NCBI GenBank assembly: GCA_041687695.1
Contig: JAWLBL010000010.1
Span: forward strand, 1 to 34,575
DNA length: 34,575 bases
Direction: 5' to 3'
From: Myxococcota bacterium
Lineage (GTDB): Bacteria > Myxococcota_A > UBA9042 > PHBI01 > JAWLBL01
Position numbers and translations under genes: made by a program. The notes beneath the pieces are model-generated. The model was given only the letters and a program-made list of their open reading frames with translations. It was not told the DNA's origin and searched no databases. Shown piece after piece: positions 7,144 to 33,198 of the stretch (position 1 is the stretch's first letter; every line of letters starts with the position of its first letter).

Positions 7144-8232
7144 CTACCGCTCGGCGCCCGCCGCCACGACCTCGACGGCCAGCTCGCCCTCGACCCCGGC
7201 CACGCTCAGGGCCAGCGTCCCGCCCCCGGGCGCCACGCCCTCGAGGTACAGCACGCGCGCCCGGGCCAGCGTCGCCTCGTCCTCCTCCGACAGCGTCACG
7301 TCCCCGTCCGGCGCCGCCCACGGCGGCCCTCTCAGCCGCGCCACGTCCCCCACCGTCGCGGCCAGCGCCTCCCCGTCGTCCCCGAACAGCAGCCGCCCGT
7401 CGCTCCCGTAGACCAGCGCCACCACGGTCACCGCCTCGCCGACCTCCAGCGTCAGCGTCCCCAGCTCCTCCCCGGTCCCCGCCCGCTCGGGCACCCACAC
7501 GCCCAGCCGCTCGGCCGCCCCGCTCGGCACGACCGACAGCCCCAGCGCCCCGCCCCCCGCGACCGCGATCACCGTCTCGCCCAGCTCCCCCGCCCTGGCC
7601 CCGACGATCACATCGTCCCGCCGCGGGTCACTCGCTCCCAACGCCACGATCCCCGGCGTCGCCGTCGCCCCGGCCGCCCCATACCCCAGCAACTCCGCCC
7701 CCTCCGCATCTCGCAGCGTCACGACCAACCGCACCTCGCCGTCCTCGAACAGCCCGAACCCGTCCGGCGCCAGCCGCTGCGCCAGCCCGCCCACCGGCAC
7801 CTGCAGCGCGACGTCGAACGGCCACAGCGACAGCTCCGAGACCCGCACCCCCGACGCCGCGATCGCCGCGACCTCCAACGCCACCGCGACCCGCTCCCCC
7901 CGCGCGCTCTCGACCGTCACCTCCGAGGCCCCCTCGGCCCGCGCCTCGACCGTCACGACCTCGCTCACCCCCACCACCGCCAGCACCCCCGGCGCGCTCG
8001 ACTCGGCCGCCCCCGGCGCCACCTCCTCGCCCCCGCGCCTCAGCGCCAGGTCCAGCCGCGCCCCCAGCGCCACCGGCCGCGACAGCCCCCCGTCGTCCCC
8101 CGCGCACCCCTGCGACGCGTCCACGACCCGCAGCGGCTGCGTGGCCCCCTCGTCTCCGCACGCGCCAGCAGCGCTGGTCGCGAAGGGCAGGGCGAGGAGC
8201 GCGCTCAGCAGCAGTCGGAGGCGGCGGTTCAT
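7144..8232 (-). CDS. Secreted probable lipoprotein, beta-rich, function unknown
   Basis: Start reassigned to MNRRLRLLLSALLALPFATSAAGAC (signal peptide with lipobox-like AGAC); Val/Gly/Glu-rich body. Confidence 0.7.
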   Translation of the reverse strand: MNRRLRLLLSALLALPFATSAAGACGDEGATQPLRVVDASQGCAGDDGGLSRPVALGARLDLALRRGGEEVAPGAAESSAPGVLAVVGVSEVVTVEARAEGASEVTVESARGERVAVALEVAAIAASGVRVSELSLWPFDVALQVPVGGLAQRLAPDGFGLFEDGEVRLVVTLRDAEGAELLGYGAAGATATPGIVALGASDPRRDDVIVGARAGELGETVIAVAGGGALGLSVVPSGAAERLGVWVPERAGTGEELGTLTLEVGEAVTVVALVYGSDGRLLFGDDGEALAATVGDVARLRGPPWAAPDGDVTLSEEDEATLARARVLYLEGVAPGGGTLALSVAGVEGELAVEVVAAGAER

Positions 8233-9630: not shown

Positions 9631-10041
9631 ATGAAGAAGCTGATCGGTGGAATCTTCATGGTGATCATGGGCCTCGCCGGCATCGGCGCCGGCCTCCGCA
9701 AGGACGACCCCTCGCGCCTCACCGACTTCTTGCTCGGCCCGGCCTTCCTGCTCATCGGCCTGCTGCTCATCGCCAGTTCGCAGGGCTACTCCCTCGCCCG
9801 CCTCGTCCGCCTCGCCACCGGCGCCGAGCGCCGCGACCGCCAGACCGCCCTCCAGCGTCGCGTCATCACCGCCGCCGCGGCCCACGGCGGCCTCATCACC
9901 GTGTCCCAGCTGGTCCTGAAGACCGGCCTGTCCATCGACGAAGCCGAGGCCATCCTCACCTCCCTGTCCGCCCGCGGCCTGTGCGTCATGGATCTGGACG
10001 ACGAAGCCGTCGTCCGCTACCGCTTCCCCGAGCTGCGCTGA
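9631..10041 (+). CDS. Small membrane protein, two TM helices plus a winged-helix-like C-terminus
   Basis: GAGG RBS and MKKLIGGIFMVIMG start; two hydrophobic segments; GGLITVSQLVLKTGLSIDEAEAIL...YRFP tail. Confidence 0.8.
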   Translation: MKKLIGGIFMVIMGLAGIGAGLRKDDPSRLTDFLLGPAFLLIGLLLIASSQGYSLARLVRLATGAERRDRQTALQRRVITAAAAHGGLITVSQLVLKTGLSIDEAEAILTSLSARGLCVMDLDDEAVVRYRFPELR

Positions 10042-11128: not shown

Positions 11129-11210
11129 GCTCCACCTCCCGTGCAGACCGCCGCTCTCCTACCGGCTCGGCGCCTCCCTTGTCACCACCCCACCCCCGCC
11201 GCCCCGAAAC

Positions 11211-11333
11211 ACGTTACCGCGGTAACGTCCTCGCCCCCTCCGCCGTCCTTCCCGCTCCGAAACGTTACCGCGGTAACGTCCTCGCCCGCTCCGCCGTCCT
11301 CCTGTCCGCTCCGAAACGTTTCCGCGGTAACGT
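11211..11333. repeat. Cluster of three parS-like palindromes
   Basis: ACGTTACCGCGGTAACGT at 11211 and 11262 and ACGTTTCCGCGGTAACGT at 11316, within 51-54-bp tandem units. Confidence 0.9.
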
Positions 11334-11374
11334 TCTCCCCCCGTCGCGCTCCTGCCTCCTCGTGTCCCCTCGGA

Positions 11375-12085: not shown

Positions 12086-12136
12086 GGAGTGCCCGAGCTC
12101 GCGCGGGCTCGCTGGATCGCGCCGCTCGCGGCGCCC
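12086..12136. repeat. Dispersed 51-bp double-hairpin repeat, copy 2
   Basis: 48 of 51 bases identical to 172-222; lies just downstream of vapC. Confidence 0.85.
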
Positions 12137-12201: not shown

Positions 12202-12350
12202 CCCGGTTGCAACCTCCGCCGACCGTGCCATCATCGCCCCCGACCCCGGCTGGAGACCGATGCACCGCCCCGACGCGCTCACCCTCGCCAACACCCTCGA
12301 CGAGGCCTGGCACGACCAGCCCCGCTCCTTCGAGCGCGAGGCCCTGACCC
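12202..12350 (+). repeat. Promoter-RBS-leader direct repeat, copy 1
   Basis: Near-identical to 12926-13082 and 14249-14397; carries TTGCAA-N16-CATCAT (with TG extension), GGAGA and ATG. Confidence 0.97.
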
Positions 12351-12397
12351 AGTCGTCACCGCTCCATTCCCCAGCCAAGCGCCGCGCTGACCCATGA
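12260..12397 (+). CDS. 45-aa leader ORF (MHRPDALTL...), coupled to the RDD gene
   Basis: ATG after GGAGA; its TGA overlaps the RDD gene ATG (ATGA, 12394-12397). Confidence 0.5.
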   Translation: MHRPDALTLANTLDEAWHDQPRSFEREALTQSSPLHSPAKRRADP

Positions 12398-12840
12398 ACC
12401 GACACGAGTTCGCCCTCATCCCGGCCCTCCCGCGCCGCCTCGAGGCCGCCGCGCTCGACCTCGCCATCGGCTTCGGTTTGATGTTCAGCGCGATCTTCGG
12501 CCTGCGAGGCCTGGGTCCCGTGGGCCTCATCTTCGCCCTGTTCATCCCCGTCATCTATGAGCCCACCCTGACGGCCCTCCACGGCCGAACCCTGGGCCAC
12601 CGCCTGCTCGGCCTGCGCGTCGTCAACCAAACGACTGGCGCCCACCCCGGCCCGGGCCAGTCCATCCTGCGCTTCCTCGTCAAGCTGTACCTCGGCTGGA
12701 TCACCTTCCTGACCGTCTTCGGCGACACCCGCCAGCGGGCCATCCACGACCTCGCCTCCAGCACCCTCGTCGTCGAAGACGACATCACCCCAGACGAGCT
12801 CGAGGCCCTCACCTCGGCGCCCGCACGAGCCGCTCGATAG
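12394..12840 (+). CDS. RDD-family membrane protein
   Basis: RRLEAAALD, GRTLGHRLLGLRVV and RQRAIHDLASSTLVV motifs. Confidence 0.88.
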   Translation: MNRHEFALIPALPRRLEAAALDLAIGFGLMFSAIFGLRGLGPVGLIFALFIPVIYEPTLTALHGRTLGHRLLGLRVVNQTTGAHPGPGQSILRFLVKLYLGWITFLTVFGDTRQRAIHDLASSTLVVEDDITPDELEALTSAPARAAR

Positions 12841-12925
12841 CTGGGCATTCGCCGTCGGCCCTGCAGCGCCCCTAGTCCACGCGCCTCCCCCGTCCGCCCG
12901 CCGTCCCGAGCACCGCCCCCCGGGA

Positions 12926-13082
12926 CCCGGTTGCATCCTCCGCCGACCGTGCCATCATCGCCCCCGACCCCGGCTGGAGACCGATGCACCGCCCCGACGC
13001 GCTCACCCTCGCCAACACCCTCGACGAGGCCTGGCACGACCAGCCCCGCTCCTTCGAGCGCGAGGCCGCCGCCTTCCTGACC
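12926..13082 (+). repeat. Promoter-RBS-leader direct repeat, copy 2
   Basis: 142 bp shared with copies 1 and 3, then 9 extra bases (GCCGCCTTC) before the shared CTGACC. Confidence 0.97.
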
Positions 13083-13169
13083 TCACGCACCCCCGATCGC
13101 CGCCTGTCTCACCAGGGCGGCGATGTCATCCTCCGCCTGCTGCGCACCGAAGGTGAGGCCACCCCGTGA
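12984..13169 (+). CDS. 61-aa small protein, the longest version of the repeated leader ORF
   Basis: GGAGA RBS; host-like GC3 codons throughout; the stop overlaps a downstream GTG (GTGA). Confidence 0.55.
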   Translation: MHRPDALTLANTLDEAWHDQPRSFEREAAAFLTSRTPDRRLSHQGGDVILRLLRTEGEATP

Positions 13170-13289
13170 AGCCGCCCAAGAAGGTCGCGTTGGTTACCGG
13201 GTTCAAATGTGCAGATTGCGCACGCCTGACCTCTTTCCCCAGAGCCCTTAGGCAGCGATCGGCGTAACCAAGCGCCAAGGAATCGACCC

Positions 13290-13949
13290 ATGGGTGCCAA
13301 GACCTGGATGCTCGTATACGCCGAAGGCAGCGCCGCCGAGATACTCAAGGCGAAGCCGCCGCTCGACCGCGGCCGGACGGTCGAGCTCGCCGGCAAGCTG
13401 TTCCCCGGGGAAACACTCCATCCGCTGGAGGACGGCGACCTCTCGTACACTTGCCCGCCCGACGACGAGCTCCACGCCGGCTGCTTTGCGGGCGTCACCG
13501 TCGTCGCCGCGAAGGAATTCGCCCCCGAACATCCGTCGACGCTGTCCCGGGACTTCATCGCCGCCGGGCTCGGAAACGATGTCTACCTGCACGCGATGCA
13601 CAGCGTCGTCGACTGGTTCGCGTATGCGCACTGGCACGACGGCAAGCTCGTCCGCGCGCTCAGCCTGTCGCCCGACAGCGGCGTACTCGAGGACGTCGGC
13701 GAGCGCAAAGCTTTCGAGACTCCATACTGGGCCGGCCAGCACCCGGCGTTCGAGCCGGAGGATGCGGACGAAGAAGATGAGCCGTACCCGTTCGACTTCC
13801 ATCCACTGGAACTGGGCGAGGCCGCTCTGGGCGCGTTGTTCGGGTTCCAGCTCGAGGGTCCCTTCGATCCGACCCTGCTCGACCCCGAGTCGATTCCCCT
13901 GATGCGCTTCAAGCGGTCGAAGGCTCGGCCGAGGTGGAGGTTCTGGTGA
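13290..13949 (+). CDS. Hypothetical protein (DUF6928-like, immunity-protein-like)
   Basis: AAGGA RBS; MGAKTWMLVY...PYWAGQHP...FHPLELGE; aromatic/basic RWRFW tail. Family assignment is from recall. Confidence 0.8.
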   Translation: MGAKTWMLVYAEGSAAEILKAKPPLDRGRTVELAGKLFPGETLHPLEDGDLSYTCPPDDELHAGCFAGVTVVAAKEFAPEHPSTLSRDFIAAGLGNDVYLHAMHSVVDWFAYAHWHDGKLVRALSLSPDSGVLEDVGERKAFETPYWAGQHPAFEPEDADEEDEPYPFDFHPLELGEAALGALFGFQLEGPFDPTLLDPESIPLMRFKRSKARPRWRFW

Positions 13950-14021
13950 TCCAATGCTTCCGCCGGACGCTCTCGCCCAATCGTCCGTTGCCCCCTCCAG
14001 CACATCGCGCATCTTGGGTGA

Positions 14022-14105
14022 GGGTCAGACTTGGCCGCTTCCCACTTTTCGGTATGGAAAGTGGAAAATGGCCAGACCTGACCCCGAACGCCCGGACCTG
14101 ACACC
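14022..14105. repeat. GGGTCAG...CTGACCC REP-like hairpin plus a duplicated right end
   Basis: GGGTCAG..TGGCC..CCACTTT pairs with AAAGTGG..GGCCA..CTGACCC (14022-14084), followed by a second GACCTGACACC. Confidence 0.75.
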
Positions 14106-14248
14106 GTGGCTGCGTGGCGCGCCCCCTGGGATCGCCAGCTTCCAGCCGGCCGCGCCTCCTCGCTCCTCCGCGTCCCGGCCCGCTGCGACCACCTGCCATC
14201 CCGTCGCCTGCTCCCATTAGCCTCTCCCCGCGATCGTCCCGCCCCCGA

Positions 14249-14397
14249 CCCGGTTGCATCCTCCGCCGACCGTGCCATCATCGCCCCCGACCCCGACTGG
14301 AGACCGATGCACCGCCCCGACGCGCTCACCCTCGCCAACACCCTCGACGAGGCCTGGCACGACCAGCCCCGCTCCTTCGAGCGCGAGGCCCTGACCC
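14249..14397 (+). repeat. Promoter-RBS-leader direct repeat, copy 3
   Basis: 147 of 149 bases identical to copy 1. Confidence 0.97.
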
Positions 14398-14432
14398 GGC
14401 CTGCTCACTTGCCGTTCGCGTCGCTGAGCTAG
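14307..14432 (+). CDS. 41-aa leader ORF upstream of the TPR-like gene
   Basis: Same first 30 aa as copy 1; the stop lies 4 nt before the ATG at 14437. Confidence 0.5.
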   Translation: MHRPDALTLANTLDEAWHDQPRSFEREALTRPAHLPFASLS

Positions 14433-14436
14433 CACC

Positions 14437-15504
14437 ATGAACGCTACCGAACTTCACGATAGGGCCATGGAGCTGGCTTCCGAGGCCGACGCCTTGCGCC
14501 GAGAGCGACGGCACGAGCCAGCCCGCGACCGTTACGCGCAGGCGCTGGAGCTCGACCGTCAGGCGGCCATGCTCGTCTCGACCGAGCCCTCGCGCGGCAT
14601 TCTGTTCCGAAGCGCCGCCTGGCTGGCGCTCGAAGCAGAGCAGGCGAGGGAGGCCGAGCGCCTTGCAGCCGCAGGGCTCGCCTCCGCGGACGTTCCAGAA
14701 AAGGTCGCCAACGAGCTGCGACACGTCATGGAGCAGGCACGGGTACAGCTCGTCGCCGCTTCGCCTCCCCCCTCCGGAGTCTCCAGCATCGGACTGCACC
14801 TCGAAGGCCCGGGCATCGGTTGGGGCGAAGCCGAAGAGGCGGACATCACCATCCGCGCCGAAGCGCTGCGCAAGCTCGTCTACCGCACGGCCGAGCGCCG
14901 CGCCGGTTACCCCTTCCGAACCAAACCCACGGTCCCGCCCGAGATCAGAAAGCAGACCAGCCCCAGGCTCCAGATCTCGCCCGGCAGCGTCTCCATCCGC
15001 CTGGTCCTGGGAGGCGCAGGCGGGGACCTGCTCGACCGAAACGCGGACCTCGTCGAGGACCTCGTCGAACGGCTCTCCGTGTTCGCGCAGGGCGACGACC
15101 GCAAGCTCTCGGAGATCATCTCCGACCCCAGCTACAACGAGAACTTCCGCGCCCTCGCGCTCAGTATCGGCCCCGACGACAGGCGAATCAGCGCAGTCGC
15201 CGTCTCAGGGGCTTCGAGTCTGCGAAAGCTCACCCCCTTCAGGCTGCCCAAGCCGCCGAAGCCCGAACGACGCCCAAACTCGACCGAGGAAGCGACCTTC
15301 GAAGGCGAACTTCGAGCCGTCGACGAGACCCGCAAGACCAGCAGCATCCGCCTCGTGGACGACGAAGGCACCGTGAGGCAACTGGTCGTCTCCGACGTCC
15401 TGATGGACGACATCGTGCGCCCCTTCTACGGCTACCGCGTCAGGGTCACCGCCCTCCGCAAAGGCCATGCCTGGCATCTGTCCGGCATGCCGGACCTCGT
15501 ATGA
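14437..15504 (+). CDS. Hypothetical protein, TPR-like helical N-terminus and possible OB-like C-terminus
   Basis: LHDRAMELA...EPSRGILFRSAAWLAL...EAERL helical repeats; beta-rich FEGELRAVD...RVRVTA tail. Confidence 0.8.
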   Translation: MNATELHDRAMELASEADALRRERRHEPARDRYAQALELDRQAAMLVSTEPSRGILFRSAAWLALEAEQAREAERLAAAGLASADVPEKVANELRHVMEQARVQLVAASPPPSGVSSIGLHLEGPGIGWGEAEEADITIRAEALRKLVYRTAERRAGYPFRTKPTVPPEIRKQTSPRLQISPGSVSIRLVLGGAGGDLLDRNADLVEDLVERLSVFAQGDDRKLSEIISDPSYNENFRALALSIGPDDRRISAVAVSGASSLRKLTPFRLPKPPKPERRPNSTEEATFEGELRAVDETRKTSSIRLVDDEGTVRQLVVSDVLMDDIVRPFYGYRVRVTALRKGHAWHLSGMPDLV

Positions 15505-15744
15505 CCACGGTCTAGCCAGCCAGGGCTTCCGGGACGAGGGTTCGCCATTTGCTCTCTCACAGCTTCGAGATTGGAGACCTTGTAGTCCTGGCCCTACCTG
15601 CTCCGCAAGGCCGCAACCTTGGCCGCGATGGCTGAGATTGCACAAACCCGACCCCCAATCGTTCATCAGGACCGATCTCGCATCAACGAAGGCAAAGGTG
15701 CGCAAACCCGACGGGATTGCGCTTCACTCGAGTGGAAGGTCGTA

Positions 15745-16800
15745 ATGCCGAAAAGAGAAGAAGTTGAGATAGCGGCAGCTCAGATCGACGAGGAGCAACG
15801 GATCGTGTCCTTTGACGTGAAGGAGTACACGGTAGAGTTGCTCGTGGCGAAGTTCGATGCCGAGGAGATCTACGCTCCGGAGTATCAGCGAAAGTTTGTG
15901 TGGCCGCCGGAACGGCAGTGCAAGTTTGTCGAGTCCGTCATCATAGGGCTTCCAATACCCTTCTTGTTCTTCGCAGACATGCCGGACGGACGCTACGAAG
16001 TTGTGGATGGCGTTCAGAGGCTATCCACTCTCAGCCAATTCGTAGGCAACAAGTTGCAGTTGAACGACCTAGCGAAGCTCGACTCACTCGGAGGATTCAA
16101 ATTCGAGGACTTGCCACTCGCTCAACGCCGACGTTTTCTCAACCGTTCGATTCGGTCCATCGTGCTTGCCAGCAGCGCCGACGAAAGCACGAAGCTGGAC
16201 ATGTTTGAGCGCATCAACACCGGCAGCCTCGCGGCGAACCCAGCAGAGATTCGCAAGGGAGCGCTGCAAGGCCCCTTCTATGACGTCGTGCTACAGGCAG
16301 CGTCCAATCGTCTTTTTCATGAGTTGTGCCCGGTATCTGAAGACCGGGCGCGCCGCGGGGAGCGTGAAGAATTAGTTGCTCGGTTCTTCGCCTATCTCAA
16401 TCGTACAGACGAGTTTCGGCACGATGTGAGCAGGTTTGTCGACAAATACATCCGCGAAGAAAATGCTGCGATTGCTGATTCTGGCGATCTGGATGCCGAA
16501 GCGAAGGCTCACGCTGACGAGTTTCGTCGCATGTTGCGATTCGTCAAGAAGCACTTTCCGTTCGGGTTCGCGAAGGCGGAGAATTCCAAGGGCACGCCAC
16601 GAGTGCGCTTCGAAGCAATTTCAGTCGGAGTGGCGAAGGCTCTGAGACGTCAACCGGATCTCGTCCCCTCTCAGCCTCCGGAGAAGTGGTTGAGAAGCTC
16701 CACTTTTGCTTCCTTGACCACCACCAACGCGAGTAATTCAGCTCCCAAGTTGAACGCTCGCATCGATTTCGTAGTGAACAAGCTCCTGGAAGCCGTGTGA
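15745..16800 (+). CDS. DUF262 (ParB/Srx-like) domain protein
   Basis: PEYQRKFVW, VVDGVQRL and FERINTG motifs; start set at MPKREE after GGAAGG; AT-richer codons than the flanks. Confidence 0.92.
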   Translation: MPKREEVEIAAAQIDEEQRIVSFDVKEYTVELLVAKFDAEEIYAPEYQRKFVWPPERQCKFVESVIIGLPIPFLFFADMPDGRYEVVDGVQRLSTLSQFVGNKLQLNDLAKLDSLGGFKFEDLPLAQRRRFLNRSIRSIVLASSADESTKLDMFERINTGSLAANPAEIRKGALQGPFYDVVLQAASNRLFHELCPVSEDRARRGEREELVARFFAYLNRTDEFRHDVSRFVDKYIREENAAIADSGDLDAEAKAHADEFRRMLRFVKKHFPFGFAKAENSKGTPRVRFEAISVGVAKALRRQPDLVPSQPPEKWLRSSTFASLTTTNASNSAPKLNARIDFVVNKLLEAV

Positions 16801-17450
16801 ATACCCTTAAGGTTCTAGACGATCGCATTCATGAGATCGATGCGTGGTTGGCCTGGCTGAAGTCCGAGGAGTCACTTGGACGTGGTCACGAGAAGCCCGA
16901 ACTCATGAAGTGCCTCAAGGGAACGTTGTTCTTGCTGCTCTACAACATAGTCGAGTCCACCATGAACAACATCGTCCTCGATCTAAACGATGCCATTGCG
17001 ACAGAGAAAATCACCTTCAGTGATCTAAGTGTAGACATGCAGAGGGAGTGTGTTCGCGGCCGAATACATCAATGGCGGGGAGACGTTGTAGCCCACAGTG
17101 AAAAGATACGCAAACTTGTGGTTGACTCGTTCCAGGGAACTCCCGCGCAGATAAGGATTGGCAGCGGCGGTAACTTCGATGCTCCGCGAATTCGCGAGGT
17201 TCTGTCCGCCTTTGGGATGTCGAAGCAGTTGGATGGTGAGTTTGAGGCTGCCAGCCGTGGCGGACATTGCCTAGCCATGGTGAAGACCCGTAGAAATCAG
17301 CTCGCTCACGGCACATTTGGGTTTGGTGAGGTCGGGAAGGATTACACAATGAGTGAACTGCAGCAACATCGCGATGAAGTGGTGGCCTTCATGCGCGGAG
17401 TCGTGAGGGTCGCATCGGATTTCATCGCAACCCGGAAGTATCGTCGCTGA
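16797..17450 (+). CDS. HEPN nuclease, MAE_28990/MAE_18760-like
   Basis: LLLYNIVES, SGGNFD and RRNQLAHG (RxxxxH); GTGA coupling to the DUF262 gene. Confidence 0.88.
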   Translation: MNTLKVLDDRIHEIDAWLAWLKSEESLGRGHEKPELMKCLKGTLFLLLYNIVESTMNNIVLDLNDAIATEKITFSDLSVDMQRECVRGRIHQWRGDVVAHSEKIRKLVVDSFQGTPAQIRIGSGGNFDAPRIREVLSAFGMSKQLDGEFEAASRGGHCLAMVKTRRNQLAHGTFGFGEVGKDYTMSELQQHRDEVVAFMRGVVRVASDFIATRKYRR

Positions 17451-17889
17451 GACTTGCGATGCGCTCGCCGACCGCACGCGAACTTAGGGTCTCGCATTCC
17501 CAAATGACAACGACGCGCCATCCCGCACTTTTCAAAGCCCGCTGGGTGCGCTCATCACGTGCGACGTTGGCCTCGAACTTGGCTACCCAGAAATCCCGGT
17601 TGCGCTTCGGGGTAGTGGCTCGGCGGCAGCCGTCGTGTCGGTGCCAGAAACAGCCGTGCACGAAAACGGCCCAGCGACGGCGGCGATTGGCCAGGTCGGG
17701 TGAGCCGGGCAGGTCGCGGTTGTTGAGACGGTAGTGCAGGCCAAGCTCGCGGGCGGCTTTGCGCACGCGAAGCTCGGCGTCCGTGCCCTTCTGGCGGACG
17801 CGGCCGAGGCGCTCGGAGGTCTCTGGATCGGTTTCGAGTTCGGCGAGGTCGCGGCGTCGGCGCTTGCTGAACTCGGGCTCAGTCGGCAT
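17422..17889 (-). CDS. vsr: Very short patch repair endonuclease
   Basis: LPGSPD, FVHGCFWHRH, FWVAKFEANVARD and GWRVVVIWEC; TGATG coupling to the methylase. Confidence 0.95.
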   Translation of the reverse strand: MPTEPEFSKRRRRDLAELETDPETSERLGRVRQKGTDAELRVRKAARELGLHYRLNNRDLPGSPDLANRRRRWAVFVHGCFWHRHDGCRRATTPKRNRDFWVAKFEANVARDERTQRALKSAGWRVVVIWECETLSSRAVGERIASLSDDTSGLR

Positions 17890-19145
17890 CAGGCGGCGGC
17901 GAAGTCGGACGACAGGCCGTTCTCTTTCGAGACGCTCTCGAGGTGAGCTCGAACGGCATCGAGGAAACCGGCCGGGAACCGAAGCTGGCCTCGAGCTGCG
18001 CGGGTAAGGAAGCCGGCGGTTGCGCGGACGGAGAGAGGGGCCGTCGGGAACTCGAGGAACTGACTCAGGGCCGGCCGGTCCACGTGCAAGGGCCAGCGGG
18101 AGAGGCTAGCCGAGTAGCGACCGTCTCCGACGTTCCAGGCTGCATCGGGCCAACGACCCGGACCGGAGATGAGGTGCGACTCGAACGGGACCGGCTCGCC
18201 TGGTTCACGCAATCGGCGGCCAATCCACTCGGCTACGTTGACGGTCACGGCGTTGCCGACGAGCTTCCAGCGGCGCCCGCGACGGGCGATTGTCTCGACT
18301 GGGAGCGTCCAGTCGGCAGGGAAGCCCTGCATGCGCTCGGCATCGCGGATGTCGGGCGTGACGACGCTGCCGTCGGACCAGACGATGGCCGGAGGTGACG
18401 GGATGCCGAGACCGGAGCCGCCCTTCAATGTGGGTACGGCGTCCTCGGCCCAGCCGAGCCCCTTCACGCCTTCCGTCCAGTAGAAGCCGCAAGGTCCCTT
18501 TGGCCAGGTGCGTCGCGGCGCCGGCTCACCCGCCTCGTCGGCGAAGAGCACGCCGCGGGGATCCCCCACTGTGCTCGCGACCAAGAACACTCTTTCGCGT
18601 CTCTGCGGAACTCCGAAGGCTCGCGAATCCACGACGCGATAGGCCCAGGAGTAGCCGAGGCGCTCGAGCTCGTCGACGATGACGGCTAGTGCGCGCCCAC
18701 CATGAAGCGAGAGCATGAACGACACGTTCTCGAGGATCAGCCAGGGGACACGACGGGCGCGGAGAAGTCGAAAGACTTCGGCCACCAACCCCGAGCGTAA
18801 GCCCTCGATCCCTGCGGTCTGGCCGGCTTGGCTGAGATCCTGGCAGGGGAAGCCACCGGTAAGGAGTTCGACTTCGCTCGGAAGCCCCTCGAGCTTGGTC
18901 ACATCGTCAGCGAGCTTCGCGTCCGGGAATCGATGCCTCAGCACCTCCTGTGCGAGTTCGTCGATCTCGCACAGGAGCGATGTATTGTGGCCCGACCGAG
19001 CGAGCCCGAGTTCGATGCCGCCGATGCCAGCGAACAGCCCAGCGGCCATCAGCGGAGGCCGCTTCGTAACCTGCGGACTCGGTACGGCGGACTCGACGGG
19101 CAGGGCCAGTTGGGTCGGGGCGGGGTTGCGCGGGACTGTGCTCAC
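17889..19145 (-). CDS. dcm: DNA (cytosine-5)-methyltransferase
   Basis: Motif I FAGIGG, IV GFPCQD, VI ENV, VIII QRRERVF, X GNAV. GTG start chosen because GGAGGA lies 5 nt upstream. Confidence 0.93.
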   Translation of the reverse strand: MSTVPRNPAPTQLALPVESAVPSPQVTKRPPLMAAGLFAGIGGIELGLARSGHNTSLLCEIDELAQEVLRHRFPDAKLADDVTKLEGLPSEVELLTGGFPCQDLSQAGQTAGIEGLRSGLVAEVFRLLRARRVPWLILENVSFMLSLHGGRALAVIVDELERLGYSWAYRVVDSRAFGVPQRRERVFLVASTVGDPRGVLFADEAGEPAPRRTWPKGPCGFYWTEGVKGLGWAEDAVPTLKGGSGLGIPSPPAIVWSDGSVVTPDIRDAERMQGFPADWTLPVETIARRGRRWKLVGNAVTVNVAEWIGRRLREPGEPVPFESHLISGPGRWPDAAWNVGDGRYSASLSRWPLHVDRPALSQFLEFPTAPLSVRATAGFLTRAARGQLRFPAGFLDAVRAHLESVSKENGLSSDFAAA

Positions 19146-19209
19146 GAGGCTCCTCCAAGTGCGTGCGTGCTGAACATACGAGCAGGTGCTCGATGACGCA
19201 AGCTCGAGT

Positions 19210-19977
19210 TCAGGAATCCGCGAACTCGAAGGGGGGATTGTTCCGTTGGTCGAACGCACCGGCGATGTGTACGAAGAATTCCTTCCAGCCGAAGACTTCT
19301 CCGGCCTCTGGGCTCGGGCGGCGGGCCTTGGGCGGCCTCGGGCGCATGACGTCATAGAACCAGACGGTGTCCGGATCGCTTCTGTCGTACAGCCCGATGA
19401 AGAACGCCTCGAAGAGTTCGGGCTCGTCGCGAGGTGTCTCGCGCCCGGCTCGGAGGCGGAAGTACTTGACCGCAGCCCCGAACGACGAGGCCCCTGCTTC
19501 CCCTGCCTTGTCGGGATTGCCGTCGTCACAGGACTCGATGGGCAGGAACAGGACACCCACCAGGACCGCGTATGGTTGCCGGGTGTGGTAGTCTAGGGCT
19601 TCGGCCCTCAACTCGTTGTCGTTCCTCGAGTAGTTCTTCGTGAAGCGCTTCTCGGGGAAGTTGATGGACTTGATCGAGACACCGAGCCCAAGACCGATGT
19701 CGGGCTTCGAGTAGTTGACGTCCAGCTTCTTGGGCCCTCGAGCAGCCCGGGATCGGGACTCGGTTCCGCTCCCGTCCTCAGAAGGAAGGATCCCCGGAAA
19801 CCGCCTGCGGAGCCCGCGCGCGATCAGCATGGCCATCGCATCCGAGAAGCCTTGGGACCAGTTCTTCTTGTCGGCTTGGGTCACGACATCGCCGTGCTCG
19901 CCCGCGAAACCCAGCACGTCCGCGAAGTTCTTGATCCCTGCCAGGCGCGCGCGCCGGTCGTCGTCCTTGGCCGCCAT
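19210..19977 (-). CDS. Probable type II restriction endonuclease (PD-(D/E)XK variant)
   Basis: GGAGG RBS; KLDV...VSIK...RAEALD resembles the D...SxK...E arrangement; directly upstream of dcm-vsr. Confidence 0.7.
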   Translation of the reverse strand: MAAKDDDRRARLAGIKNFADVLGFAGEHGDVVTQADKKNWSQGFSDAMAMLIARGLRRRFPGILPSEDGSGTESRSRAARGPKKLDVNYSKPDIGLGLGVSIKSINFPEKRFTKNYSRNDNELRAEALDYHTRQPYAVLVGVLFLPIESCDDGNPDKAGEAGASSFGAAVKYFRLRAGRETPRDEPELFEAFFIGLYDRSDPDTVWFYDVMRPRPPKARRPSPEAGEVFGWKEFFVHIAGAFDQRNNPPFEFADS

Positions 19978-20113
19978 CGGCTCGCCTCCCTCGTCCGAGC
20001 GGGACGCTAACAGCGTGTCTGCGGCCGAACAAGCCCGACGGGAGGCATGTGCCCGTGTCGAGCCCAACGGTGCGCCCGACGTCTCAGGCCCCGAATGGAC
20101 CTCGTCGCTCCCA

Positions 20114-21277
20114 TCAGCACGTTCTTCTGGGACCAGAAGGACCTGAACTGCAATCCGCCTCGAGGGCTGCAAACGGGATCAGAAGTCCCTTCTCGAAGAC
20201 CTCTGAGAGGCTGTAGTCCTCGAGCCAGTCCTGCAGGGCCGACGCGTCGGGGCGGACGAGGCGCGAGGAGCCGGCCTCGCGCTCGACGACGACCACCTCG
20301 TCGGGCACGAAGTGGTCGAGGAAGGCCGTGGATTGGGTCGCGAAGAGGACCTGGGTGTGCGAGGAGACCGAGCGAGCCAGCTCGGCGATGATGCGGATGG
20401 CGGCTGGATGGAGGCCCAGCTCGGGCTCGTCGATGGAGATGAAGCGGGGCAGCCGGGCGGTGGGCTGTGCGAGCGCGGTGACGAGCGCGATGGCGCGCAG
20501 GGTGCCGTCCGAGAGCTGGTGGACGCCGAAGCGCTCGTCGCGGTCGTCGATCCAGTCCAGGCGGACCGAAGCGCTGCCGTTCGATATTGAAGTCGGACAC
20601 AGGGCCTTCACCGACGGCGCGATGCGGCTCACGAAGTGGTTGATGCGGCGCCACGCCTTCTGGTCGGCGTCGTCCTCGCTGCGCTCGAGCCGGCCCAGGT
20701 AGGACGCCAGGTTGCTGCCGTCCGAGCGCAGGAAGCGGTCGTCCTCGGCGCGGGCGTTGGTGCGAAGCGAGGACGTCAGAGAGGTGTCGTGGAAGTGGAA
20801 GAAGTTCAGCTGCGAGAGCCAGTAGTCCACCGTCCGGGCCGTGGTGTCGGACGTGCGGGCGTCGCGCAGCTTGGACTCCCAATGGCCGGCCCCCAGGGAG
20901 GTCATCCGCATCGGGCCGGCCTCGTCGGCCGCGAAGCCCACCACCTCGTCGAGGTACATGAGTTGGTCACCGGCGGCGAAGCCGAGCCTCGCCAGGTAAC
21001 GATTTCGGTGCCCGTTCTGGACGAAGTCCAGCTCGACTCCGATGGCCTGCGTGCGCTTGGGGCCGTAGTGCAGCAGCGACGAGGCCCCGCCCGACTCGCC
21101 GACGAAGCGCTGGAGCGAGCCGGTGCGCATCAGCGGCACCATCTGCAAGGCCCGCAGCAGGTTCGACTTGCCGGACCCGTTCGCGCCGACGAGCACCGTG
21201 AGGCGCCCGGGCGCGAGCGTGACGTCGGACAACGACCCGAAGCCGGTGATGTGGACCCGTTCGAGACCTTCGGTCAT
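20114..21277 (-). CDS. ABC-type AAA_21-like ATPase with a disrupted C-terminus
   Basis: Walker A GANGSGKS, signature LSDGT, Walker B IDEPELGLHP, ATQS; start at MTEGLERVHI. Confidence 0.9.
   Translation of the reverse strand: MTEGLERVHITGFGSLSDVTLAPGRLTVLVGANGSGKSNLLRALQMVPLMRTGSLQRFVGESGGASSLLHYGPKRTQAIGVELDFVQNGHRNRYLARLGFAAGDQLMYLDEVVGFAADEAGPMRMTSLGAGHWESKLRDARTSDTTARTVDYWLSQLNFFHFHDTSLTSSLRTNARAEDDRFLRSDGSNLASYLGRLERSEDDADQKAWRRINHFVSRIAPSVKALCPTSISNGSASVRLDWIDDRDERFGVHQLSDGTLRAIALVTALAQPTARLPRFISIDEPELGLHPAAIRIIAELARSVSSHTQVLFATQSTAFLDHFVPDEVVVVEREAGSSRLVRPDASALQDWLEDYSLSEVFEKGLLIPFAALEADCSSGPSGPRRTC
20129..20189. mobile_element. 61-bp insertion (MITE or IS scar) in the ATPase 3' end
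   Basis: Flanked by TTCT direct repeats (20125-20128, 20190-20193) with GGGAC/GTCCC termini; removing it rejoins VFEK to NVL. Confidence 0.55.
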
Positions 21278-21436
21278 GCGCAACCTCGACGAGGGCGTCC
21301 GGTGCCGGAGCGGTCGCGCTCCGAAGCGCCCCTCGGCCCGAATCTTCGCACACCCTGAGGTCGAAGCAATCGCCACGCAGGCGGGCGTAGGGCGAAGGGC
21401 GGGCCTGCGAGGAGGACGCAGGCCCGCCGCGGGGGC

Positions 21437-22312
21437 TCAGGCGGGGGCCGGCTCGGCGGGGATGGCCGGGGCCTCGGCCGGGGCGCTGGACTTCGGATTG
21501 GAGGGCTTGGAGGTCGGGACGTACAGGGAGGGGAAGCGGGCGAGCCGGGTGGGCTCGTTGCGGAAGAGGAAGGTCGCCGCGGCGAGGACCTCGGCGTGCG
21601 AGCGCTTGAGCAGGGTGAAGATGCGCGCGCGGGCCTCGATCCACTGCTTGACCGAGGCGGAGGCGCCGAGGTGGGTGAAGATGGCGTCGGAGAGGCGGCG
21701 GGCCTCGGAGGCGTGCTTGGGATCGTAGCGGCGCCCGTCGAGGGCGAGCAGGGCGTGGTGGGCCGCGTAGAGGTCGGCCAGCTCGGCGAGGTCGTCGGCG
21801 AGGTCGACGTGGCCGGTGCCGGCGCGGATGCCGGTCAACTCGCTGGCGATGGCCGGGTCGTCGCCCAGGTTGTAGTCGAGCACCTTCAGCATCCCGGCGC
21901 GCAGGGAGCGGGCCGCTGCGATGACCTCGGGCGGGACCTGGGCCCGGGTCGCGTTGGCGGACTCGCGGTTGGACTTGCGCTGCACATAGAGCGCAGCCCA
22001 GGAGTAGGTCTTCATCCGGTCGATGTGGCCAGCGTCGAACTCGTCCGGCGCGAGCTTCTGCATGCGCGCCCGGGTGGGCGGCTCGCTGGCGGCCTCGTGG
22101 GTCTTCATGGCCTGGAAGGCCGCAGACGCCAGGTTGGTGTTCACCGGCTCGAGGGCGTCGTCGGCCAGCGCGCGCGCCTCGTCCGCCGAGCTGCTCCAGG
22201 CCTTCTCGGCCTTCGCCTCGTCGTAGGGCGCGCCCATCTCGGCGGCGATCACCGCATCGGACACCTCCTGCTCGTCACTCACGGGGGTCGATTCGTTCAC
22301 GGGCCCGCTCAT
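21437..22312 (-). CDS. Hypothetical all-helical protein (291 aa)
   Basis: GGAGGA RBS; host-like codons; IRAGTGHVDLADDL and FPSLY motifs; Pro/Ala-rich tail. Confidence 0.85.
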   Translation of the reverse strand: MSGPVNESTPVSDEQEVSDAVIAAEMGAPYDEAKAEKAWSSSADEARALADDALEPVNTNLASAAFQAMKTHEAASEPPTRARMQKLAPDEFDAGHIDRMKTYSWAALYVQRKSNRESANATRAQVPPEVIAAARSLRAGMLKVLDYNLGDDPAIASELTGIRAGTGHVDLADDLAELADLYAAHHALLALDGRRYDPKHASEARRLSDAIFTHLGASASVKQWIEARARIFTLLKRSHAEVLAAATFLFRNEPTRLARFPSLYVPTSKPSNPKSSAPAEAPAIPAEPAPA

Positions 22313-22410
22313 GGTGCTCCTCCGTTTCCGTGGGTCATGGGTGGTGGGCTGACGTGCCGCATGTCCATCCTGCACCGCAGAGCGGGAGCGTCAAGTCGAC
22401 CTGGCCAACT

Positions 22411-22910
22411 CCTGGTGACCCTAGGCCCCCGTCGCGAGGTCTGGACCTACTGCACGACGGTCCAACGTCCTTGCGAGAGGTGCCGACCTCTCCGCACGAG
22501 GCCGGGGCACCCGTCGGAAGGGGATCACCTTCCTGCACGAGGCCTGGGCACCCGTCGGGAGGGGATCACCTTCCTACACGAGGCCTGGGCACCGTTCGGG
22601 AGGGGATCACCTTCCTGCACGAAGGGCTGGGCACCCGTTGGAAGGGGATCACCTTGCCGCACGAGGGCCTGGGCACCCGATTGGAAGGGGATCACCTTTC
22701 CGCACGATGCTCGGGCCACCTGGAATCGAGGTCAGGACCTTCGCGCGCGGTGCCCGGGCCACCGCGTATCGAGGTAGAGACCTTCGTGCACGGTGCCCAG
22801 GCCTCTCGTACAGGAGGTCCCCACCTTCTCGCGCGCGCTCGTATGCCGGGGGACGAGGTCGAGACCTTCTGCGCGGTGCCCGGCCCGCGCGTCCCGAGAT
22901 CGGCCTTCGC
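22411..22910. repeat. Degenerate tandem array, 41-43-bp period, about 12 units with an AGGK-N4-ACCT core
   Basis: Cores start at 22437, 22478, 22519, 22560, 22601, 22643, 22686, 22729, 22772, 22815 and 22856, plus a decayed one at 22897. Confidence 0.92.
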
Positions 22911-22984
22911 CAGGCTCGACGCCGGATGGCTCGACAGGAAAAAAGGGCTGGGCTCGGCGCCTGCCCTTCGCCCAGACTGGGGCC

Positions 22985-24004
22985 ATGAACAACCGCATCT
23001 ACATCGTCCGGGCTGGCCGAGAGGCCGTTCATGTCGACACGTTCGTCTCCCGCGGCCTGATGGCCATGGGCTTCTGCGACGACATCGGCGCCGAGGCCCT
23101 GTCGATGGACAGGGCGCAGCTGCAGGAACGCATGGCCGCCGTGTACCCCGAGTGGAACAAGCACCGCACCGCCAACCACAGCGGCCAGTTCCACCGCTTC
23201 AAGTCCGAGATCCAGGTCGGCGACACCGTCGGGACCTACGACCCCAACCTGCGCCTGTACTTCATCGGCCGGGTCACGTCCGAGGCGCGCTACGACGGCC
23301 GCCCCATCCCCGAGTATCCCTACGTCCGCAGCGTCGAGTGGACCCACCGGGTCGACCGCGACAGCCTGTCGGTGCGGGCCCGCAACAGCTTGGGCGCCAT
23401 CCAGACCGTCTTCCAGCTCGACGAAGAGGTCACCGCCGAGCTCTTCGAGCGCGCCGTCCCGCGCAACGCCCCGGTCGCCGAGACGCCGCCGCCGCCCCAG
23501 CCCGACGCGGCCGACACCACCATCGACGACCTCAAAGCCGAGACCCTGGAGAAGGCCGAGAAGTTCATCGAGGACGCCATCGCCAAGCTCCACTGGGACC
23601 AGGTCCAGGAGCTCGTCGCGGGCATCCTCCGCGCCATGGGCTACAAGACCCGCGTCTACCGCTCCAAAGACCGCGGCGTCGACGTCTTCGCCTCCCCAGA
23701 CGGCCTCGGCCTCGAGGAGCCGCGCATCTTCGTCGAGGTCAAGCACCGCAGCGCCCCCATGGGCGCCCCCGACATCCGCTCCTTCCTGGGCGGCCGCAAG
23801 CCGGGCGACCGGTGCCTGTACGTCAGCACCAAGGGCTTCACCACCGAGGCGCGCTACGAGGCCGACCGCGCCAACGTCCCCTTGAGCCTGCTCTCGGTCT
23901 CCGACCTCCGCGAGCTCCTCACCGAGTACTACGAGGCGCTCGACCCCGACACCCGCCGCCTGGTCCCCCTGACCCGCCTGTACTGGCCGCTGGCCGATGG
24001 GTGA
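22985..24004 (+). CDS. mrr: Mrr-like restriction endonuclease
   Basis: N-terminal IVRAG...GF..IG domain; catalytic region LRAMGY...DRGVDV...VEVKHR...YVSTKGFT. Confidence 0.88.
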   Translation: MNNRIYIVRAGREAVHVDTFVSRGLMAMGFCDDIGAEALSMDRAQLQERMAAVYPEWNKHRTANHSGQFHRFKSEIQVGDTVGTYDPNLRLYFIGRVTSEARYDGRPIPEYPYVRSVEWTHRVDRDSLSVRARNSLGAIQTVFQLDEEVTAELFERAVPRNAPVAETPPPPQPDAADTTIDDLKAETLEKAEKFIEDAIAKLHWDQVQELVAGILRAMGYKTRVYRSKDRGVDVFASPDGLGLEEPRIFVEVKHRSAPMGAPDIRSFLGGRKPGDRCLYVSTKGFTTEARYEADRANVPLSLLSVSDLRELLTEYYEALDPDTRRLVPLTRLYWPLADG

Positions 24005-32831: not shown

Positions 32832-32893
32832 TCGTTCGCTGAGGCTTGACGAGGGCTGGGTTGAGCGGAGGGCGGGGCGTGCCGGGGATTGCA

Positions 32894-33034
32894 GGCGTTA
32901 CCGCGGAAACGTCGTCGGAGCGGCGGCGGGAGTCGATGCGGCGGGGGGCGCCGGGGAGTTCGGGCGTTACCGCGGAAACGTCCTGGGGGGCGATCGGGGG
33001 GCGTCGTCGATGGAGGCGTTACCGCGGAAACGTC
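32894..33034. repeat. Second cluster of three parS-like palindromes
   Basis: Identical GGCGTTACCGCGGAAACGTC at 32894, 32963 and 33015. Confidence 0.92.
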
Positions 33035-33198
33035 AGGGGGGCGGCGGCCGGAATCGATGGGGGCTGGGTCGGGTCGAGCGGCGGGGGCGTCGGGCCGAAA
33101 AGGCGCTTGCGACGAGTGGGCCGGGACGGTAGAGCGGGGGCCGCCCGTCGTGGCCGCTGGCGGCGGCGGGCGGTGACGTTGCCGTTCGTGGAGCTGTC

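Follow-up and report, generated by a model that had tools for sequence, protein, structure and literature searches.

In the effector-immunity arrays of the Vibrio type VI secretion system (T6SS), and in the orphan arrays of Rhs and contact-dependent growth inhibition (CDI) loci, successive unrelated insertions at a conserved anchor leave a row of remnants without an integrase; as PMC5361080 describes them, the anchor lies upstream, and the stranded pieces downstream of it are immunity genes or 3′ ends. A mirror image of this arrangement is found in a 34,575-nucleotide stretch of a Myxococcota bacterium (contig C10:1-34575, hereafter the window), whose genome comprises 7.97 Mb in 63 contigs at ~73% GC. 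In this window, three direct repeats of ~145 bp stand in front of different, unrelated genes beside a defence island. Here a likely promoter and a 5′ end are stranded, the intact gene stands last at two comparable loci of the same genome (HIT-HNH and nnrS, below), and anchor and cargo do not form an in-frame fusion. A preliminary description of the repeats had seen in them a new portable module that lends a promoter, a ribosome-binding site and a leader peptide to captured genes. The feature is real, but its nature was misread: the repeats are the stranded heads of a decayed, unnamed defence-island operon.

The promoter early stem-loop (PeSL) cassettes of T4-type phages set a repeated sigma-70-type promoter and Shine-Dalgarno (SD) sequence before variable genes, which may be shuffled by homologous recombination without a dedicated recombinase; PMC2839356 describes them as ending at the start codon, carrying a terminator stem-loop and numbering ~50 per phage genome. 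The unit described here differs in that it includes 28-31 codons of a known parent gene, lacks a terminator and is present in three copies on a chromosome, and PMC2839356 reported that cellular organisms then offered no evidence of PeSL-like plasticity. Foreign genes are also placed under a resident promoter in promoter capture, which proceeds by microhomology-mediated deletion or tandem duplication (PMC6614815; PMC11111574) and has been shown in E. coli at microhomologies of 3-12 bp (PMC6614815). The cases described in these two sources are single laboratory events, whereas here a single gene head would have been used at least two times, leaving a stack. Insertion by an integrase into the 5′ end of a gene, as for SXT/R391 in prfC, may similarly leave a displaced gene head at the border of the element (PMC2791158). 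In contrast, no integrase lies in or near the blocks at our locus, the blocks measure 0.6-1.3 kb, and the duplicate of 142-149 bp is near-identical throughout.

The array would function like the displacement arrays and the PeSLs, and it lacks the marks of an integron, of a miniature inverted-repeat transposable element (MITE) and of a dedicated leader. Integrons use one Pc promoter for the whole array, attC spacers and the integrase IntI. The present array has a likely promoter in every repeat instead of one Pc, no IntI above the cut-off and no attC-like palindrome. Specifically, the best match to the integron integrase model TIGR02249 scores 79 bits against a cut-off of 265, on other contigs, and 14 control genomes all fall below the cut-off too, so that this search had no positive control. 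The single-stranded DNA fold of the unit has a z-score of -1.45, the unit is coding sequence of the parent gene introduced below, and neither a tRNA nor an Rfam family is found in the window. What is shared with integron cassette arrays is a one-way row of single foreign genes, parted by repeats, beside defence genes (comparison in PMC5361080). The earlier statement that no recombinase lies in the window holds for the four families searched (PF00589, PF07508, PF00239 and PF01797), which have no match on C10; none is in or beside the inserted blocks, as an att-site duplication would lead one to expect, and all matches are on other contigs. Nor is the unit a generic MITE, since its three copies lie within 2.2 kb only and none of the inverted repeats listed is a terminal inverted repeat (TIR) of the unit. 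Our literature search recovered papers on PeSLs, promoter capture and displacement, and none on stacks of promoter-plus-5′-end stubs in chromosomal defence islands, although most subscription journals fell outside that search.

The repeats (Table 1) measure 142-149 bp, with identities of 98.7-99.3%. A search of the 7.97-Mb genome gives, outside the array, a best match of 23 bp exact. As had been claimed, the 142 bases common to all copies include exactly two substitutions, one private to copy 1 (12212) and the other private to copy 3 (14296). Every copy presents the same promoter-like boxes, TTGCAW-N16-CATCAT, followed by GGAGA and an ATG (12260, 12984 and 14307). A scan for the sigma-70 consensus found no promoters at the repeats. 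The pattern TTG-N19-21-[TC]AxxxT, whose spacer peaks at 16-18, is enriched upstream of this genome's genes (11.3%, against 2.8% for the opposite strand and 0.4% within coding DNA, by crude gene calls), and all three repeat copies fit it. Plus-strand terminator-like sites are absent between 11000 and 16000.

Each repeat is a likely promoter joined to the first 28-31 codons of a broken, unnamed two-gene operon, which we call A-B. A profile-free HMMER query with the copy 2 frame of 61 aa, run against 1.84 billion proteins, retrieved a 311-aa protein that opens with the identical peptide; the result had nine rows, among which P0005 and P0008 look unrelated and the short forms P0004 and P0007 come without context. 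A word search of longer proteins with the same frame gave no match. The family of gene A (~305 aa) comprises 58 proteins at E ≤ 0.001, which share 48-79% identity with the query and of which at least 50 are near full length. What had been described as a dedicated leader peptide is the truncated N-terminus of this conserved protein.

The gene A family has no match in Pfam, PADLOC or NCBIfam. Four residues (D87, E109, E111 and K113) show no variation across all 56 aligned sequences and form a nuclease-like D...E-x-K motif, which we take to be that of the PD-(D/E)XK nuclease superfamily. A structure model of the protein (pLDDT 89.9) gives weak Foldseek matches (best E 0.024, with rows that include AF1548, Card1, MspJI and Can2), and VIA-align returns similarly weak matches to Can2 (Z 7.1) and to MarR-type winged helices (Z 7-8.4). 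The product of gene A is likely a nuclease with a winged helix. Gene B (~240 aa) directly follows gene A in 15 of the 15 loci examined, and its product has a helical N-terminus and a C-terminal domain with a weak, non-significant likeness to SeqA (Foldseek E 0.89). Atlas look-ups, useful as leads only, give 0.84 as the best value for gene A, and 0.92 for unnamed clusters and 0.86 for a SeqA row in the case of gene B. Neither gene has a Pfam, PADLOC or NCBIfam match across loci L063-L075 and L080. Gene A comes directly after an N6 methylase gene in L065 and L066, and L068 and L069 look alike at the upstream end by eye; the remaining gene A loci have upstream regions of their own. Sited beside restriction-modification genes, and often right behind a type I methylase gene, the A-B operon is a candidate defence system.

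Several features of these loci call for separate comment. The records of L065 and L069 bear the titles Enterobacteriaceae and Klebsiella, which look mislabelled: the DNA of both is GC-rich, and these stretches also occur in this phylum's G239 and G443. In L064, a 147-bp direct REP-like (repetitive extragenic palindrome) repeat of 98.6% identity (7373-7519 and 9683-9829) lies on either side of a block of two genes, immediately ahead of an intact gene A. Repeats near gene A in L064 and L065 were considered as possible gene A heads and set aside, because by eye they correspond to a REP-like repeat and a piece of hsdM.

Copy 2 is what remains of the parent operon itself, in which the 5′ part of gene A is followed by its 3′ part and by the start of gene B. 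Within the single 61-aa frame, the family hidden Markov model (HMM) matches at positions 2-30 (independent E-value 4.5e-11) and again at positions 275-303 (0.0014). A DNA profile of the gene A end and gene B start, built from 15 loci, finds its best match in the genome at 13090-13190 (E 7.2e-8; the next is 0.0056). The 9-bp indel of the preliminary description is really the junction of a deletion of ~245 gene A codons. Likewise, homology does not end at CTGACC in copy 2, where the repeat is left after GAGGCC and gives way to the 3′ end of the parent gene; the CTGACC at 13077 belongs to that 3′ piece. The DUF6928 gene begins only 220 bp past copy 2, and the rest of the parent operon comes first.

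The other two copies preserve what copy 2 has lost. The coding part of copy 1 corresponds to gene A codons 1-30 plus the first base of codon 31 and matches HMM positions 2-32 (independent E-value 1.2e-11). Because copies 1 and 3 retain the family-like codons 29-31 (L-T-R), which are missing from copy 2, they probably derive from an undeleted template. No whole gene A or gene B is left in this genome.

Gene A is otherwise kept as a whole gene. Its profile was run on five overlapping genome sets (107, 401, 154, 113 and 182 genomes), in which the nearest genomes share only the order with this one. It matched once in each of 13 other genomes, with ten whole genes, two 3′ parts (G423 and G485) and one 5′ stub (G010). 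A collection scan found nine whole gene A loci, and a metagenome scan with a search pattern that recovers 8/9 known whole loci found four more, all whole single copies; viral contigs had no match to the pattern. The G010 stub (HMM positions 2-46) lies between hsdS and a cargo gene, upstream of hsdR, and ends in an ATGA overlap. At the DNA level, 16 of 61 genomes gave a match at E ≤ 0.001, and translation revealed the peptide in G010 only; the other 15 look like GC-rich chance matches. A search for relatives of the peptide of 24-79 aa yielded three candidates, all from this window.

Similar stubs of two other genes occur in the same genome. On the minus strand of C5:35800-47300 (L126), a HIT-HNH gene pair has five stubs upstream, ~115-431 bp long and 84-99% identical. 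A different gene follows each stub, the intact pair is last, and the most upstream stub is the most diverged. In three of these stubs, as in the intact copy, the shared sequence starts at the TTG of TTGCCC-N17-CATCCT, and no identical bases continue upstream of this 5′ edge in five of six pairs. One HIT-HNH stub has an internal HIT-to-HNH deletion and so resembles copy 2. Similarly, on the minus strand of C15:147811-152039 (L125), the head of nnrS is duplicated over 340 identical bp that begin 7 nt before TTGCCT-N17-CATCAT; the truncated copy comes first, followed by 2.6 kb of other DNA and then the intact gene. A TIR-type repeat begins 7 nt past the nnrS junction, a divergent Y1 transposase gene adjoins the truncated copy, and a trace of a Y1 transposase-type gene lies upstream of intact nnrS. 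Counting the present locus, 3/37 low-copy local repeat loci start at a -35 box (p 0.001-0.009 under an any-position null).

Elsewhere in the genome, at C29:106633-108995 (L108), the left end and promoter of a Y1 transposase element recur as head-to-tail repeats of 96 bp, along with truncated copies of the element. On the same contig, three GGGGTCAG...CTGACCCC hairpins, at 110441, 112691 and 114339, separate single genes.

Table 1. Features of the repeat array and its neighbourhood (positions in the window)
Feature	Position	Strand	Remarks
REP-like genome-wide repeat, GGAG-tagged	12086..12136	+	66 nt upstream of copy 1; 158 blastn matches in genome
Copy 1	12202..12350	+	likely promoter, -35 TTGCAA 12207-12212, -10 CATCAT 12229-12234; GGAGA 12252-12256
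Stub frame 1	12260..12397	+	45 aa: gene A N-terminus + 15 foreign codons; stop and RDD start overlap (ATGA)
Cargo 1, RDD-family membrane protein	12394..12840	+	148 aa; PF06271 E 2.4e-14
Copy 2	12926..13067	+	likely promoter, -35 12931-12936, -10 12953-12958; GGAGA; gene A codons 1-28
Internally deleted gene A	12984..13169	+	61 aa; codons 1-28 fused in frame to last ~33 codons (13068-13169)
Gene B start	13166..13190	+	first 8 codons; GTG overlaps gene A stop; then foreign DNA, stop 13267
Cargo 2, DUF6928 protein	13290..13949	+	219 aa; PF21997 E 1.3e-74; SD-like AAGGA of its own
GGGTCAG...CTGACCC hairpin	14022..14084		TIR type flanking Y1 transposase gene on contig C59; fold z -3.1 and -3.4
Second genome-wide REP-like repeat	14120..14175	+	74 nt upstream of copy 3; 139 blastn matches
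Copy 3	14249..14397	+	likely promoter, -35 14254-14259, -10 14276-14281; GGAGA; gene A codons 1-31
Stub frame 3	14307..14432	+	41 aa; stop 4 nt short of next ATG
Cargo 3, no named family	14437..15504	+	355 aa
Defence island	15742..24004		GmrSD_N/DUF262, HEPN, Vsr, C5 methylase, unnamed ORF, AAA_21 ATPase, unnamed ORF, Mrr-like

The family labels given earlier to the first two cargo genes are borne out by their Pfam matches, and the TPR-like label for cargo 3 is unsupported, given that this protein has no Pfam, PADLOC or NCBIfam match. Homologues of cargo 3 follow a ~180-aa partner gene in 3/3 loci, and that partner is absent from this genome, as would be expected if cargo 3 had been joined into a foreign operon. 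These relatives form an unnamed pair of ~180-aa and ~360-aa genes (L088:959-2577, L089:896-2613 and L090:1417-3113), neither with a family match, and in L088 and L089 the pair appears to be sited in restriction-modification loci. A close variant of cargo 3, P0073, is encoded on a contig of 15,347 bp. The linker in front of cargo 3 might have been what is left of the missing partner's 3′ end; tblastn gave no match, and the idea was rejected as unproven.

A VapBC pair lies upstream of the array, and GC content drops to 53-56% at 15.8-17.4 kb, in the adjacent defence island. Within the island, a minus-strand open reading frame (ORF) at 19210-20172, between the AAA_21 ATPase and C5 methylase genes, has no family match and contains an E-x-K-like stretch; it is likely the restriction endonuclease of the Vsr/methylase set. 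A second unnamed minus-strand ORF (21437-22375) has paralogues on C40 (75% DNA identity) and C48. At 22474-22723, between the Mrr-like gene and the unnamed ORF divergent to it, lie five or six 41-43-bp repeats with a GGGGATCACCTT core and no Rfam match. The palindrome GTTACCGCGG(T/A)AAC clusters at 11190-11340 and 32890-33071 and belongs to a dispersed genome repeat family, whose 10-mer has 46 copies.

The proposal that the module supplies both a promoter and coupled translation stands in part. A likely promoter, a ribosome-binding site and a gene start do precede unrelated genes, and the frames end as had been reported for copies 1 and 3. Coupling of cargo translation to the stub frames is suggestive, and its support depends on the null chosen. 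Among eight stub frames (three here, counting that of gene B, one in G010, three of HIT and one of nnrS), four stop at a real gene start or no more than 4 nt from one, namely those of copy 1, copy 3, G010 and one HIT stub. The ATGA overlaps after one further HIT stub and the nnrS stub open frames of just 17 and 57 codons and were scored as not coupled. The chance per case is 0.135 for entry into intergenic DNA (p ~0.015), compared with 0.36 for entry at the end of a coupled gene (p ~0.32). Going by crude start calls, 41% of the genes that come first in their unit have an SD sequence, compared with 59% of coupled genes. Since roughly half of the called genes have none, its absence before the RDD gene and cargo 3 says little.

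How did the stubs come to stand in a row? On balance we judge, by no wide distance, that the three copies are scars of serial insertion by one-sided homologous recombination at the front of the A-B operon. A donor molecule would carry the cargo in front of its own copy of promoter-A-B; a homologous crossover within A-B would form one end, and a non-homologous join inside the resident gene A or B would form the other. With each event, the old promoter and gene start would be left stranded before the new cargo, and a fresh promoter-A-B would stand behind it. In the order we infer, a first join at gene A codon 31 would have admitted the RDD gene. A second, at gene B codon 8, would have admitted DUF6928, and the stranded gene A, now without B, would later have lost its middle in frame. 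A third, again at gene A codon 31, would have brought in cargo 3 and the defence block, after which the last whole A-B would have been lost or replaced. The common 5′ edge at the -35 box would mark the limit of long-term conservation among donor alleles and not the cut site of an enzyme.

This process corresponds to the homology-facilitated illegitimate recombination, combining one-sided homology with an illegitimate join, that PMC5361080 proposes for the T6SS orphan arrays. As in displacement arrays, remnants of one conserved gene alternate with unrelated cargo, with no integrase on C10, and the intact gene stands last in both the HIT-HNH and nnrS loci. A ComEC-type gene is present in the genome. 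Judging from the layout, each cargo likely inherits the stranded promoter. Near-identical direct repeats would also permit the array to expand and contract by later recombination, as had been suggested.

Several observations weigh against serial insertion. There is no intact A-B at the downstream end, unlike in the HIT and nnrS loci, and a further loss must be assumed. Unlike the spread breakpoints of HIT, the three here lie in a span of 9 nt (codons 28-31), and a hot spot must be assumed as well. Homology-facilitated illegitimate recombination does have hot spots, and the three breaks may reflect a local one. Residual similarity upstream of the three copies is not significant (p 0.06-0.88). 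No second array of gene A stubs was found in the other genomes or contigs searched. Against a rough intergenic null, the -35-box starts at 3/37 loci give p 0.13. The 7-bp direct repeat GACCCGG that brackets the copy 3 unit (P ~0.001 for random pairs) is predicted by a different explanation, considered next. Finally, such recombination is rare according to PMC5361080, which puts it forward as no more than a proposal.

That explanation, which we regard as possible though clearly the less probable, is local templated copying. Copy 2 would be the original, and a 146-bp piece with a short terminal direct repeat would have been copied twice, by template switching or through a small circle, into intergenic DNA ~40 nt upstream of two resident genes, where it was kept as a promoter. 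Copies 1 and 3 do share the same 146-bp length, both lie 66-74 nt downstream of REP-like repeats, and their terminal microhomologies are CCC (P ~0.08) and GACCCGG; because G010 and L066 read CGG TTC at codons 31-32, the ancestral repeat may have been 9 bp. Such copying leaves unexplained why 7 nt separate the end of the unit from the start of the deletion in copy 2, why gene B breaks at codon 8 and why cargo 3 has lost its partner. The modelled empty sites contain no recognisable gene end or promoter, and terminal microhomology fails as a general rule, with none above 3 bp in the HIT and nnrS duplicates.

It is rather less likely again that gene capture in this lineage is anchored at promoters and needs no recombinase, such that any transcribed gene head at a defence hot spot may be duplicated from the -35 box with each insertion and bound RNA polymerase sets the edge. 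A-B, HIT-HNH and nnrS would be its footprints, and the recurrence of the layout at three unrelated genes of a single genome, with the -35 box as the edge, lends this reading some weight. If it is true, every newcomer would come in under a functional promoter, and in many cases its translation would be coupled as well.

We are more doubtful about a site-specific enzyme acting in trans, either a TIR-associated Y1/HUH transposase or a tyrosine or serine recombinase, that would act at CTGACCC (gene A codons 29-31), inserting cargo and replacing the 5′ end. Three breaks within 9 nt would suit such an enzyme, and CTGACCC is the end motif of the TIR hairpins of Y1 elements in this genome, one of which lies at 14022-14084. 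TIR hairpins of Y1 transposase elements are treated in PMC3733652 and PMC6006769, with the TIR consensus GGGGWSAS in the former. Elsewhere the genome has ten Y1 transposase matches above the cut-off, three tyrosine recombinases and three large serine recombinases, and the nnrS junction has its TIR-type repeat and Y1 gene close by. None of these genes is on C10, however, and TGACC is not enriched upstream of TIR ends (7/143 against a background of 5.6%), for which reason TIR insertion beside CTGACC was also rejected. Moreover, the HIT stubs end at unrelated sequences without the motif, the G010 stub breaks near codon 40-46 and not at 31, and no inverted repeats were seen by eye at the cargo ends.

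We consider it improbable that the array is an assembly chimera, with the 142-149-bp repeat serving to link alleles of a single variable locus that came from co-occurring strains. The assembly is fragmented, with N-gaps among its 63 contigs, the repeat is about one short read long, and the proteins of the copy-1 stub, RDD and VapC are recorded on two contigs, compared with one for those of copy 2, copy 3 and DUF6928. Yet the window contains no N, each copy has unique flanks, two copies have private substitutions, and contamination is 2.3%. The RDD block and the block of deleted gene A and DUF6928 are each unique from repeat to repeat, which suggests that the repeat-flanked blocks are real whatever their order. 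Least likely is the module of the preliminary description, a dedicated and portable promoter-RBS-leader unit evolved for driving captured genes and coupling their translation, with a new copy made at each capture: the coupling of four of eight stub frames favours it under the intergenic-entry null and not under the coupled-gene-end null, the peptide is a fragment of a full-length gene that is whole in 10/13 other genomes and is not kept as a short ORF, and the other stubs of this genome come from unrelated genes.

The locus bears on the question of how defence islands acquire and express single foreign genes without a nearby integrase. Under serial insertion, stacks of stranded gene heads would record the order of insertion, and they would offer a cheap genomic signature for hot spots and for new defence genes, the unnamed A-B pair being itself a candidate defence system. 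Such stacks also predict that the cargo would be expressed from its first day in the island.

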